This document shows positions 25,048 to 28,375 of a stretch of 64,000 nucleotides of DNA, in pieces. Location: the sequence record PV648359; one strand, given 5' to 3'. The translations under genes and the position numbers were made by a program. Position 1 is the first letter of the stretch; each line of letters starts with the position of its first letter. The DNA is from Escherichia phage LF82-1. The notes beneath the pieces are model-generated. The model searched no databases, had not been told where the DNA came from, and worked only from the letters and a program-made list of their open reading frames with translations.

Positions 25048-25352
25048 TATAATATTCTCTCAAATTTGTGGAAGCATTTACGGCATTTCAATTTCAAGTT
25101 ATCAGTGGTCCAGTTAACCAGTTGGACTTGGATAGTTCCACATTCCGGGCATGGATGTTTTGCTGCTGATTTGGCAGCATTTTCACGTCGTTCAACCATT
25201 TTCATTATTTCGTTCCATGCTGGAGGAACGAACTCTTCTTCACCGTGGATTTTATCTCGCTGAACAAATTCAATCTTTGAACTATCGTCAATAAACTTAA
25301 CCAAGCCATGATTAGTGCTCATATCAATATCCTCTAAAAGACGTAGTTTCAT
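25047..25352 (-). CDS. Zinc-ribbon protein (101 aa)
   Basis: CPECG...CRKC motif. Confidence 0.5.
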   Translation of the reverse strand: MKLRLLEDIDMSTNHGLVKFIDDSSKIEFVQRDKIHGEEEFVPPAWNEIMKMVERRENAAKSAAKHPCPECGTIQVQLVNWTTDNLKLKCRKCFHKFERIL

Positions 25353-26302
25353 TATAACACCTCAATGGCATTTCGTAAACCGTCCGCTTTCGCATTCAGA
25401 GCTTTTAACGATTTAGTCTGTTCTTTAATCTGGGCTTCGACTTCTTTCAGACGAGATTTGAGATATTCACGTTCTTCGCTCAAGTTGTCAACTTTTTCTA
25501 CTTTAGGTTCTTTAATAGTCTTAAGTTTATACTCGTTAGGGTTCTTCAGCTTAATTCGGGTGCGAGAACTGTATAACATTGAACCGTTATCTTCGGATTC
25601 GTCGAACGTTTCAACAACATCCATAGTCTCTAACAATGTAATAAGTTTATAAGACAATGAACGAACGGTTTTGTTATGCTTATTAATTTCTTCAGCTTTC
25701 ATGGTACCGAGATTACGTGAGTAGTAATAAGGAACCTGGATATCAATTGATAATGATGCGTTACCATTACCGGTCGGTTTGAATACTGCAGTAACCCAAT
25801 CTTTAACATGAACTTTATTTGTACGACCATCACCGCCCGTGAATAATTTACGAGAATGTTTAAAAAGCATATTCACTTGGTTATTGAATTCACAAGCAAA
25901 TTTATCAGCGAATTTAGTTTCAGGAATGGTAGATAACCAATCAGCCAAATGAGTCTTTTTAACATCATTAATAATAGTGAATTCAACCAAATCAGTTTTA
26001 GATGTCACAGATTTAATAAAGCTCGGTTTCATAAAGTTTTTAATGTTATCGCGAGCTACAGTAGAAGATAATAAACGAGAACGTTTGAACCATTGAAGCA
26101 GTGTCCCTAATGAATGAGAATACGCATTCTGAGTATCTTTACAGATATGATTTTCTTGACCTGTGTATGTACCAAAATCGCGAAGAATACCACTTACTAC
26201 ATCTCGGTGTGGAACATCAAATCCTAGTGCACCAACAGCGCGCTGGGCACGAACGTTAGCGATAAGACCGGCAAAGTATTCAATGTAATGTGAACGTGTC
26301 AT
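25352..26302 (-). CDS. Hypothetical protein (316 aa) with C-terminal coiled coil
   Basis: ORF track; heptad-like C-terminus; own upstream promoter stem-loop. Confidence 0.55.
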   Translation of the reverse strand: MTRSHYIEYFAGLIANVRAQRAVGALGFDVPHRDVVSGILRDFGTYTGQENHICKDTQNAYSHSLGTLLQWFKRSRLLSSTVARDNIKNFMKPSFIKSVTSKTDLVEFTIINDVKKTHLADWLSTIPETKFADKFACEFNNQVNMLFKHSRKLFTGGDGRTNKVHVKDWVTAVFKPTGNGNASLSIDIQVPYYYSRNLGTMKAEEINKHNKTVRSLSYKLITLLETMDVVETFDESEDNGSMLYSSRTRIKLKNPNEYKLKTIKEPKVEKVDNLSEEREYLKSRLKEVEAQIKEQTKSLKALNAKADGLRNAIEVL

Positions 26303-26330
26303 AATATTTTCCTCTCGTTAAGATAGATTT

Positions 26331-26362
26331 ATTATACTCCAACCATCCTTGGTTGTAAACCG
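26331..26362 (-). promoter_or_regulatory. Early-promoter stem-loop cassette (GTTTAC, palindromic spacer CAACCA-AGGA-TGGTTG, TATAAT)
   Basis: 27-nt identical copy at 27351..27377. Confidence 0.55.
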
Positions 26363-26364
26363 TT

Positions 26365-27324
26365 TTATGATTTTAATGCATTCATTGCATTAAAAAGTTT
26401 AGAGTACTGCAACTGGAGATTCGTTACAACACTTTGAGCATCACGAAGCTTAGCTTGTGCTTTGTCAAGTTCAACGGACAGTTGGTCTGCAGTAGCCTTG
26501 ATTTGGTTGTAATGATAATCTTCGGCCGGAAGAAGGTCATTAGAAACATTTAGTTTTACTGCCGACAGTTTGCACACATTTGGCAAACCTTTAAACATAC
26601 CGGGTTGTGTCGGAGAATATGCGCTTAGAACCTCTGCATTACCGACTGGTGTTGCTGTAATATTGCCTTCAAACAATGCATTTTCCTTTTTAAGATTTTG
26701 ATAGTATTCAGAGTCTTTGTGCCACCATGGCGCAGGAACCTTTTTACCAATAGATACACGAGCCTGGATAGCGATATGGCCCTTATTCTTGATAGGGTCG
26801 ATAATATTAAGCTCACGAGAATAAATTGCTTTAATTTGGTGAATATTATCACCTAACACTTCCAACGCTTGGTGGAATACACGAGCAACGTTATCGTTCT
26901 TAGGTTTATATGTAAGAGTGAACTCGTTCTCACTGATAACCATGATTTCTAACTTATCGTAAGTATATTTCAAATGTTTCATGTTAATTGCTTGAGGACG
27001 AATACGAGAAGCAATGGCCATCAGATTGTTAAGGTTATTTCGGAACTGTTTAGCGAAATATTGTCCTTCACCGCCGATACAAAAATTACGAAGTTTCTGT
27101 TTGGCTAATAAACGGCTGAACTCACCATTTTTAATGAACTCTTTAACGGGTGTGTTAGTAATGCATTCAAATTGAGTAAACATACGAGAATTAATCCCAT
27201 AATATGAACAGATTTCCTCAATCTCTTCAGGAGTCTTTACAGGCATACGGATAGGATTAGGTCCTGGAGTATATGCGTTCGAGGTAAATTCTTTGATAAG
27301 TTCTCTACGTGTAATAAAAGCCAT
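26365..27324 (-). CDS. Hypothetical protein (319 aa) with C-terminal coiled coil
   Basis: ORF track. Confidence 0.55.
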   Translation of the reverse strand: MAFITRRELIKEFTSNAYTPGPNPIRMPVKTPEEIEEICSYYGINSRMFTQFECITNTPVKEFIKNGEFSRLLAKQKLRNFCIGGEGQYFAKQFRNNLNNLMAIASRIRPQAINMKHLKYTYDKLEIMVISENEFTLTYKPKNDNVARVFHQALEVLGDNIHQIKAIYSRELNIIDPIKNKGHIAIQARVSIGKKVPAPWWHKDSEYYQNLKKENALFEGNITATPVGNAEVLSAYSPTQPGMFKGLPNVCKLSAVKLNVSNDLLPAEDYHYNQIKATADQLSVELDKAQAKLRDAQSVVTNLQLQYSKLFNAMNALKS

Positions 27325-27350
27325 TTTATATTCCTCATGTTGAAAAATTT

Positions 27351-27382
27351 ATTATACTCCAACCATCCTTGGTTGTACATCA
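27351..27382 (-). promoter_or_regulatory. Early-promoter stem-loop cassette (copy of 26331)
   Basis: attatactccaaccatccttggttgta repeated. Confidence 0.55.
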
Positions 27383-28375
27383 TTCCTTAAGAAGTTTTAC
27401 TACTTGAATAAGATTAGCTCGTTCTGTTTTATTTTTACCGTTTAAGCCTGCTAATCGTGAGATTTCATCGTCAGTCTGTTGAATAGTTACATTAAGTTCG
27501 TTAATCAAAGCTTCAAAGTATTTGATTTGCTCAGCATGTTTTGATTCAAATTTCTGAACCGGAATAACGTCTTGGTTCAGTCCATCAATAAGGTCTTTAA
27601 GAGCATCTTCTTGGTTGATATCATATTCAACTTCCTTTATTTCTTCAACGAGCTCGTCTTTATATCTAACGTCTTTTAGTCCTGGTGCTGGTCCTGAAAT
27701 CTCTTCTTTAAGAGTACAAACATACCCAATACGGTATCCAATGCCGTCTCGCTTGATATCAACTTCGTCGATAAATCCACAATGTTTAAGTCCAGAGCCG
27801 ATTATGTCAAAATATCCTTGACGACGTCCTTCAAACGTTACACGAACTACTAAGACAGTTTTGCCACCGACCTTTTGAAGCTCACATTTATAAAAGTCCG
27901 TTGAACCTGAATAACGTGGATGAGTTTTAAAGTTCATCTGACGATCTAGGCCCATTTGTAAACGTGCTGTTACGGCCATAAAACGTGTTTGGTTCTCGTT
28001 AAGATGAGCAACAATCCATTTCAAAGGCATTTTACACTGTTCACGACCGAACAAATCAGTACGTCCTAGATTACGCAGGATGTTGTTAGAGTTAATCATC
28101 GACAGAACGTTAAGTTTATTCAACGCGCTGAAGATTCCGTCAGCCATTGATTTTCCATAACCTTTACACGCTTTAATAAGTGCTCGCGGCAGATTAGTAT
28201 AGATTTCAGACGGCATATGAAAATCAAATTTACTAGTCAGTAATTGATGAACTTGGATAGCAATTTGCTCATAATTAAGTGCTCTGCGATCGTTATGGTC
28301 TTTAAACCACACTTTAATCTGTGAAGCACATAAACCGTTAATTTCATGTTTTACCGCATCAGATGTAATGCTCAT
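27380..28375 (-). CDS. Hypothetical protein (331 aa) with C-terminal coiled coil
   Basis: ORF track. Confidence 0.55.
   Translation of the reverse strand: MSITSDAVKHEINGLCASQIKVWFKDHNDRRALNYEQIAIQVHQLLTSKFDFHMPSEIYTNLPRALIKACKGYGKSMADGIFSALNKLNVLSMINSNNILRNLGRTDLFGREQCKMPLKWIVAHLNENQTRFMAVTARLQMGLDRQMNFKTHPRYSGSTDFYKCELQKVGGKTVLVVRVTFEGRRQGYFDIIGSGLKHCGFIDEVDIKRDGIGYRIGYVCTLKEEISGPAPGLKDVRYKDELVEEIKEVEYDINQEDALKDLIDGLNQDVIPVQKFESKHAEQIKYFEALINELNVTIQQTDDEISRLAGLNGKNKTERANLIQVVKLLKE

Follow-up and report, generated by a model that had tools for sequence, protein, structure and literature searches.

Three tandem open reading frames (ORFs) on the minus strand of Escherichia phage LF82-1 were analysed within a stretch of 64,000 nucleotides (nt) from sequence record PV648359 (hereafter the window). 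ORF1, ORF2 and ORF3 encode 316, 319 and 331 amino acids (aa) and occupy 25352-28375, exactly as given in a prediction made earlier from the DNA letters (the original prediction). We consider it likely that the locus is an RB69-type nrdC.6/ORF2/nrdC.3 arrangement in which ORF2 is swapped through promoter-hairpin cassettes of the PeSL type, and that the three proteins are putative anti-defence binders of one fast-diverging family.

All three genes are already known, with little or no characterisation. They were in the literature before, as were the cassette type and one function in the family; what is added here is the family evidence for NrdC.3 to NrdC.6, the 27-nt recombination core and the population-level presence and absence of the DUF7235 gene, which is ORF2.

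Identity of the three genes

The window belongs to a Mosigvirus (RB69-like, Straboviridae) genome according to the taxonomy of its close matches. By megablast, the 3-kb stretch of the three ORFs was 100% identical to phages isolated on E. coli LF82, such as Escherichia phage LF82-2, and 95-98% identical to many Mosigvirus genomes. In record PV648360.1 the coordinate equals the window coordinate plus 96000. A strong Shine-Dalgarno sequence of the GAGG type lies upstream of each ORF. The ORFs and their C-terminal helices were placed as follows, with the evidence in brackets.

25352..26302, minus strand, ORF1, 316 aa, NrdC.3 (T4 identity, phrog_1435, synteny)
25355..25480, minus strand, C-terminal heptad-rich helix of ORF1, aa 275-316 (AlphaFold2, heptad score)
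26365..27324, minus strand, ORF2, 319 aa, DUF7235 member, RB69-type NrdC.5 (Pfam, RB69 annotation, T4 identity)
26368..26514, minus strand, C-terminal heptad-rich helix of ORF2, aa 271-319 (heptad score, T4 alignment)
27380..28375, minus strand, ORF3, 331 aa, NrdC.6 (phrog_2257, T4 identity, synteny, AlphaFold2)
27386..27535, minus strand, C-terminal helices of ORF3, aa 281-308 and 313-330 (AlphaFold2, heptad score)

ORF1 is the orthologue of T4 NrdC.3. The two proteins are 56% identical over the full length (316 aa), ORF1 matched phrog_1435 with an E value of 9.6e-102, and the gene is located immediately upstream of nrdC.2, the same placement as nrdC.3 in T4. The phrog_1435 group also includes NrdC.4, a paralogue of NrdC.3 whose gene the phage of the window does not carry.

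ORF3 is the orthologue of T4 NrdC.6. It matched phrog_2257 over the full length (E 5.2e-127) and showed 29% identity with T4 NrdC.6 (E 2e-19). It is located downstream of nrdC.8, in the same synteny as in T4 apart from the relocated nrdC.7. ORF3 differs from the T4 protein in carrying an additional acidic linker of about 30 aa. NrdC.6 in the T4 reference (NC_000866, L002 7997-8894) has only 275 aa and lacks the C-terminal helix of its relatives, which have 295 aa in four T4-type loci of IMG/VR and 284 and 281 aa in P0061 and P0063. In T4, the end that NrdC.6 lacks (...SKAKSEREKLIKIVDLLKS) is encoded out of frame, immediately upstream of nrdC.5, which suggests that a frameshift in the T4 reference strain or in its sequence explains the short protein.

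ORF2 matched the Pfam family DUF7235 with an E value of 1.8e-119 and 399.2 bits (gathering cut-off 30 bits), its residues 15-318 aligning to model positions 1-307. T4 NrdC.5 matched the same family with 420.6 bits (E 5.3e-126) and ORF87 of phage WG01 with 407.7 bits. ORF2 is RB69p097, which the RB69 annotation names nrdC.5, and the NrdC.5 family corresponds to phrog_2351. In the maps of T4, RB69, PhAPEC2, WG01 and the IMG/VR loci, the DUF7235 gene lies downstream of nrdC.6 in the nrdC-tk region. ORF2 thus resembles T4 NrdC.5 in its full DUF7235 match, near-equal length, C-terminal helix and position downstream of nrdC.6. It differs in three respects. T4 nrdC.5 follows nrdC.6 without a cassette, whereas ORF2 has its own PeSL promoter; ORF2 is bracketed by identical repeats and is polymorphic among phages; and the identity between the two proteins is just 26% (E 1e-11).

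No recognisable enzymatic motif was found in the three proteins, in agreement with the original prediction. DUF7235 in ORF2 was the sole Pfam match, NCBIfam and the PDB sequences gave no match for any of the three ORFs, and the ORF3 model matched no PDB fold. The same prediction had set, as the observation that would speak against it, that each ORF have a clear and unrelated orthologue of known function; the T4 orthologues are clear, but little or nothing is characterised of them.

The C-terminal coiled coils that had been proposed for all three proteins were supported in two of them. We used our own crude, home-made heptad score and compared it with shuffled sequences, looking for at least four heptads within a predicted helix; ORF1 and ORF2 both had them. 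The score of ORF1 exceeded the shuffles at p=0.02, its AlphaFold2 model contains a helix at 275-315 with a predicted local distance difference test score (pLDDT) of 66-80, and the C-terminal helix is the best-conserved portion of the NrdC.3 family alignment. For ORF2 the score was stronger (p<0.003), and its helix aligned with the C-terminal helix of T4 NrdC.5. For ORF3 it was marginal (p=0.06) and the heptads are broken at GLNGKNK; the C-terminal helices are kept in P0061 and P0063, which are distant NrdC.6 relatives. The ORF3 model had an overall pLDDT of 68, with about 80-89 in the N-terminal 145 aa.

Ahead of the coiled coil, aa ~216-263 of ORF2 (window 26536-26679) form the most variable segment among the Mosigvirus orthologues, with substitutions and indels. 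The corresponding segment of ORF3, aa 224-277 (window 27545-27706), is likewise the most variable part among the orthologues and is predicted to be disordered in the model. In both proteins this segment may serve as a flexible linker, or selection may be concentrated there.

Gain and loss of ORF2 between direct repeats

Two exact copies of a 31-nt sequence, TACAACCAAGGATGGTTGGAGTATAATAAAT, were found at 26327-26357 and 27347-27377, with no mismatch and with no match in 100 shuffles. The original prediction had reported 27 identical nucleotides; the identity is real and in fact extends to 31. The 27-nt core, through TATAAT, is common to all Mosigviruses examined. The two copies and the cassettes in which they lie are as follows.

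26327..26357, minus strand, repeat copy 1 (exact match)
27347..27377, minus strand, repeat copy 2 (exact match), 1,020 bp from copy 1
26303..26364, minus strand, PeSL cassette of ORF1: promoter 26331-26359, hairpin 26340-26355, then Shine-Dalgarno sequence and ATG
27325..27379, minus strand, PeSL cassette of ORF2: promoter 27351-27379, hairpin 27360-27375

The identical cores form a pair of direct repeats on either side of ORF2. The query aligned to phages p000v and F2 in two pieces, and exactly 1,020 bp were missing. At the junction, a single hybrid cassette links the end of nrdC.6 with the start of nrdC.3; its 5' flank comes from the ORF2 cassette and its 3' flank from the ORF1 cassette. These relatives give good support to the suggestion, made from the two identical cassettes, that the regulatory unit was recently duplicated or exchanged.

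With a 301-nt junction probe, we found the ORF2-less junction in 21 of 153 Mosigvirus records (a count that includes RefSeq duplicates), and the rest matched the probe in halves only. ORF2 is encoded in 132 Mosigvirus records, which agrees with this count. The five ORF2-less loci examined all contained one identical hybrid cassette, while the ORF2-bearing loci contained two cassettes. In neighbour-joining trees built from the flanking nrdC.6 and nrdC.3 DNA, the ORF2-less genomes were scattered among the ORF2-bearing ones, and this scatter points to repeated events or frequent recombination.

We propose that ORF2 is gained and lost by homologous recombination between the repeats, or through an excised mini-circle that integrates, and that it would travel as a complete unit which brings its own promoter. 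Arbiol et al. 2010 (PMC2839356) put forward such a recombination or mini-circle mechanism for PeSLs. The locus is an unusually clean population-level case of PeSL-mediated gene gain and loss, with the site defined to 27 nt and many independent isolates. Mosigviruses differing only by ORF2 are available in collections (LF82-2 or PhAPEC2 versus p000v, F2 and AV115), and gene swapping through PeSLs bears on host-range change in therapeutic T4-like phages.

Promoter-hairpin cassettes

Judged by their sequence, the cassettes of ORF1 and ORF2 belong to the PeSL elements that Arbiol, Comeau and Krisch described. A PeSL consists of a sigma-70 early promoter with a stem-loop, followed by a Shine-Dalgarno sequence and ATG, and occurs in hyperplastic regions (PMC2839356; PMC4122927). 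In the same way, the cassettes here hold a stem-loop between -35 and -10 and flank a variable gene in a hyperplastic region, and the DNA between two elements is exactly what distinguishes close relatives. Two differences were noted: the present group is RB69/Mosigvirus, unlike the published phage pairs, and the hairpin here is a short CCA-AGGA-TGG structure without a poly-G/poly-C stem or a U-tract.

The ORF1 promoter, TTTACA-17-TATAAT, fits fully to the T-even early consensus TTTACW-N17-TAYWAT (Comeau et al. 2014, PMC4122927). The ORF2 promoter, TGTACA-17-TATAAT, fits with one mismatch in the -35 hexamer, which abuts the stop codon of ORF3. From these promoters, host RNA polymerase would transcribe ORF1 and ORF2 immediately after infection, with starts about 20 nt upstream of the ATGs. 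The claim that each ORF has its own promoter cassette thus stands for ORF1 and ORF2, with 17-nt spacers, and is weakened for ORF3, whose cassette is degenerate.

28376..28437, minus strand, degenerate PeSL-like cassette of ORF3: TTTACC 28428-28433, hairpin ACCC..GGGT 28417-28430, TATAAT 28411-28416
28993..29020, minus strand, canonical T4-type early promoter upstream of nrdC.8 (promoter scan)

The ORF3 cassette shares homology with those of ORF1 and ORF2, and its orthologue in T4 is the cassette preceding nrdC.7. Its hairpin is weak (-4.9 kcal/mol, z -0.2), and this ill-spaced copy fits the degraded '1/2 PeSL' category of Comeau 2014 (PMC4122927). Because its spacer is 11 nt, ORF3 transcripts probably read through from the nrdC.8 promoter at 28993-29020.

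The spacer hairpin of the ORF1 and ORF2 cassettes, CAACCA-AGGA-TGGTTG, has a 6-bp stem and an AGGA loop (-6.9 to -7.5 kcal/mol, z about -1.7). The cassettes that precede nrdC.3, nrdC.4 and nrdC.7 in T4 also have stem-AGGA-stem spacers, and an early promoter at window 48083-48111 on the minus strand (TGTACA...TACTAT) contains a spacer hairpin of the same design, CACCA-AGGA-TGGTG. The stem-AGGA-stem spacer is thus a recurrent design of T-even early promoters. The remaining early promoters in the window have spacers quite unlike the ORF1/ORF2 core.

The stem sequences vary between cassettes yet stay complementary. Six variants, taken from T4 and the window, had 88.9% of the cells paired, versus 65% in shuffles; four of the six pairs were altered on both sides, and 0 of 500 shuffles reached the score. 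We take this covariation as supportive and not rigorous, because the alignment was hand-centred on the loop.

Relationship among the three proteins

We consider it probable that NrdC.3, NrdC.4, NrdC.5 and NrdC.6 form a single fast-evolving family specific to T4-like phages (Straboviridae). Membership is solid for NrdC.3 and NrdC.4, which PHROGs already joins in phrog_1435; the hhalign probability between them was 93% (E 3.7e-7, 236 columns). It is probable for NrdC.5. Between the NrdC.3/4 and DUF7235 profiles, with Dhakavirus sequences added, hhalign gave a probability of 60% and an E value of 8.8e-5 over 162 collinear columns, with a score of 40 against 13.5 +/- 1.8 for column-shuffled controls. 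The alignment crosses the motifs recognised by eye, SRLLSxxVARDNIKNF / FSRLLAKQKLRNF and then EFNNQVNMLFKHSRKLF / QFRNNLNNLMAIASRIR, and extends over an FKP/YKP strand and the helix and beta hairpin that follow it. Earlier, shallow alignments had given one weak hhalign match only, and an off-register alignment of NrdC.3 with DUF7235 was superseded by the collinear one after the Dhakavirus sequences were added.

Membership of NrdC.6 is suggestive, on the basis of Foldseek and the order of predicted secondary structures. The ORF3 model had 15 matches at E<=1e-3 in BFVD, all of 234-378 aa and most of about 300-340 aa, and the named ones all came from T4-like phages (of Acinetobacter, Klebsiella, Enterobacter, Pectobacterium and Yersinia). 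One of them, with an E value of 4.2e-4, was the NrdC.3 orthologue A0A449C4K0, which is also the top Foldseek match of the ORF1 model; the two models share two matches. Their elements are predicted in the same order: N-terminal helices, a helix pair at ~118-149 and a beta hairpin at ~162-179, followed by a helix and another hairpin, and, after a linker of low confidence, a long helix at the C-terminus. The remote paralogy that the original prediction proposed to seek by profile alignment is supported in part, between NrdC.3 and NrdC.4 and between them and the ORF2 family; for ORF3 a link came only from Foldseek and the element order.

Within the nrdC.11-nrdC interval, Dhaka-, Karam-, Jiaoda-, Teguna- and Hadassahviruses also carry ORFs of about 290-335 aa with a coiled coil at the end. 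One coiled-coil ORF lies beside nrdC in Merci, PhT2 and KMB20, and near nrdC in WG01. The coiled-coil ORFs of these five genera gave weak collinear cross-matches to at least two family profiles.

The divergence of the family is large: ORF2 and ORF3 share 26-29% identity with the corresponding T4 proteins, versus 77-90% for gp49, NrdC, NrdC.8, NrdC.10 and NrdC.11. When the ORFs were concatenated and searched exhaustively with phmmer against 1.84 billion representatives, only 11 proteins were found at E<=1e-3, all of them fragments or relatives of the three families. A word-indexed search of 5.8 billion proteins revealed T-even phage sequences only, with no bacterial or distant homologues, and a scan of IMG/VR with the NrdC.3 profile found 7 loci only.

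In the layout that they would share, the N-terminus is helical and variable and is followed by two conserved helix motifs and a small beta-alpha-beta core; a hypervariable linker then leads to a C-terminal coiled coil, through which the protein would oligomerise.

Possible anti-defence function

A T4 clone with compensatory deletions no longer plated on ECOR17 (Srikant, Guegler and Laub 2022, PMC9391042), and T4 nrdC.5 supplied in trans restored plating of the deletion mutant on MG1655 carrying dsr1 (PMC9391042). This published effect of T4 nrdC.5 against Dsr1 is the sole functional datum, and for this reason we only infer an anti-defence role for ORF2; for ORF1 and ORF3 such a role is speculative. 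The host-targeting function of the original prediction is accordingly backed for ORF2, through its 26%-identical T4 relative, and for neither of the other two. The neighbouring gene product gp49.2 inhibits the OLD defence system in T6 (PMC13096335), so the nrdC region behaves as an anti-defence island. In the window, the region from pin to nrdC (22000-24400) contains homologues of 49.1 and 49.3, not of 49.2.

We propose that the proteins of the family are stoichiometric binders that would neutralise host anti-phage proteins. ORF2 would be an early binder and inhibitor of a Dsr1-type SIR2 NADase, oligomerised by its coiled coil, and we might speculate that ORF1 and ORF3 are paralogues aimed at other host proteins. 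DSAD1 of SPbeta-like phages, which inhibits DSR2 (PMC10973363, PMC10981675), is a functional analogue only. It is likewise a phage protein that neutralises a SIR2-domain NADase by binding, as proposed for the NrdC.5 family. It differs in the host clade and in its target, DSR2 instead of Dsr1; the two are likened by function and no relation of sequence or fold is claimed.

The locus provides a short list of anti-defence candidates, namely ORF2 as the RB69-type NrdC.5 and its probable paralogues NrdC.3, NrdC.4 and NrdC.6. A wider reading, that NrdC.3-6 and the nrdC neighbours of about 300-340 aa form one rapidly diversifying coiled-coil anti-defence superfamily directed at different immune sensors, of which Dsr1 would be the first known, and kept as a PeSL-swappable array, is possible, and we lean against it at present.

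Weighing of the evidence

Several results weigh against the overall reading. As to the family, pairwise BLASTP among ORF1, ORF2 and ORF3 gave no match, the hhalign signal of NrdC.6 was weak and depended on the alignment (E 0.003, 0.03 against DUF7235, and 0.077), the Foldseek link between ORF3 and NrdC.3 had a template modelling (TM) score of 0.26-0.28 and came from a model of pLDDT 68, and the ORF1 model, with an overall pLDDT of 51, is too poor for assigning a fold. As to the cassettes, the hairpin thermodynamics are unremarkable (z -0.2 to -1.8), and a role of the hairpins as intrinsic terminators is unsupported and was dropped because they have no U-tract and modest stability. The 11-nt spacer of the ORF3 cassette is non-canonical for sigma-70, and the promoter scan gave no call there. 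The neighbour-joining trees carry no support values, and each ORF2 event may be a loss or a gain. As to function, ORF2 is dispensable, because about 14% of the Mosigvirus records do without it; at 26% identity with T4 NrdC.5, the Dsr1 specificity may not carry over; and our search of the literature revealed neither a mechanism for NrdC.5 nor any data on NrdC.3 or NrdC.6.

The three ORFs might instead be unrelated ORFans of like length with a C-terminal helix, and the promoter core might be kept by selection and not by recombination. The negative BLASTP, the mostly non-significant hhalign comparisons of shallow profiles and the placement of ORF1-3 in three separate PHROG and Pfam families agree with this. 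However, the NrdC.3/4 and DUF7235 profiles match at E 8.8e-5, collinear through the same motifs and strands, and Foldseek ties the NrdC.6 model to NrdC.3 and to a common set of T4-like proteins. Selection on the promoter fits poorly with the different spacers of other early promoters in the window, and with the ORF2-less junctions, which fall inside the repeat. We judge this explanation quite unlikely. It is highly improbable that the ORF2-less genomes are assembly artefacts of repeat collapse. The absent segment is indeed bounded by a direct repeat, as a collapse would leave it, but the repeat of 27-31 nt is below any read length, the intervening 1,020 bp are unique, and the 21 records come from differing laboratories, countries and years, with flanks 90.8-100% identical.

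As to function, the proteins could be early host-takeover or regulatory factors with non-immune targets (transcription, nucleoid, proteolysis or membranes), the Dsr1 effect being indirect or specific to T4. Most early non-essential genes of T4 act on host physiology, the gene pin (a Lon inhibitor) is nearby, and the published record holds neither an NrdC.5 mechanism nor data on NrdC.3 and NrdC.6. Yet the sole phenotype known in the family is counter-defence, such extreme divergence, together with the presence/absence polymorphism, agrees with an arms race, and the neighbour gp49.2 is anti-defence; we regard host takeover as rather unlikely. A thioredoxin-like or accessory role in nucleotide reduction, which the label 'thioredoxin' on these coding sequences in many GenBank records would imply, has a next to negligible probability. 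The label is baseless, because the proteins have no thioredoxin domain (no thioredoxin or glutaredoxin match in Pfam or NCBIfam) and there is no CxxC motif in ORF1, ORF2 or ORF3. It evidently spread from the names nrdC.N, which denote only the map position beside nrdC, and this widespread annotation of the nrdC.N genes is wrong. In many records the label is found on nearly every T-even nrdC.N gene, including nrdC.10 (AAA-like) and nrdC.11 (nucleotidyltransferase).

Gene order and other features of the region

The nrdC-tk hyperplastic region, in which the three ORFs lie, is a non-essential part of T-even phage genomes. The neighbours of the ORFs are nrdD, gp49 (endonuclease VII), pin, nrdC, nrdC.8, nrdC.10 and nrdC.11. 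The gene order in the window is nrdC.8 > nrdC.6 > ORF2 > nrdC.3 > nrdC.2 > nrdC.7 > nrdC. The order in T4 differs, with nrdC.4 between nrdC.5 and nrdC.3, and nrdC.7 between nrdC.8 and nrdC.6. Here nrdC.7 (window 24634-25047) adjoins nrdC, and compared with T4, nrdC.1 and nrdC.4 are absent. From the comparison with T4, further apparent rearrangements are located at cassettes. In the T4-type genome IMGVR_UViG_2974742932_000001, nrdC.4 (5910-6942) is split into two ORFs of 193 and 158 aa, which points to a pseudogene or to an error in sequencing.

On its minus strand, the window contains about a dozen early promoters of the T4 type. Besides those described above, the scan placed them as follows.

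52256-52284, minus strand, T4-type early promoter
51521-51549, minus strand, T4-type early promoter
48455-48482, minus strand, T4-type early promoter
47585-47613, minus strand, T4-type early promoter
40780-40808, minus strand, T4-type early promoter
37571-37598, minus strand, T4-type early promoter
30470-30497, minus strand, T4-type early promoter
18439-18467, minus strand, T4-type early promoter

Many of the minus-strand early promoters are followed by a conserved box, AGACCTATCAACTAC, and a Shine-Dalgarno sequence containing GGAG, the motif cut by the RegB endoribonuclease. A promoter-like sequence, TTTACG-17-TATAAT with TG, was also found at 25351-25379 on the minus strand, within the 3' end of ORF1. 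Its -10 hexamer overlaps the stop codon of ORF1 and the start codon of nrdC.2, so that no leader is possible and the site cannot serve nrdC.2; we rejected it as a promoter of that gene, and it is probably a chance match. The Rfam scan of 24-30 kb of the window gave no match. Between nrdC.11 and nrdC.10, at 30518-30544, we found a GC-rich palindrome, AAGGGCCTTCGGGCCCTT, which was called terminator-like on both strands, and an equivalent hairpin is also present in T4.

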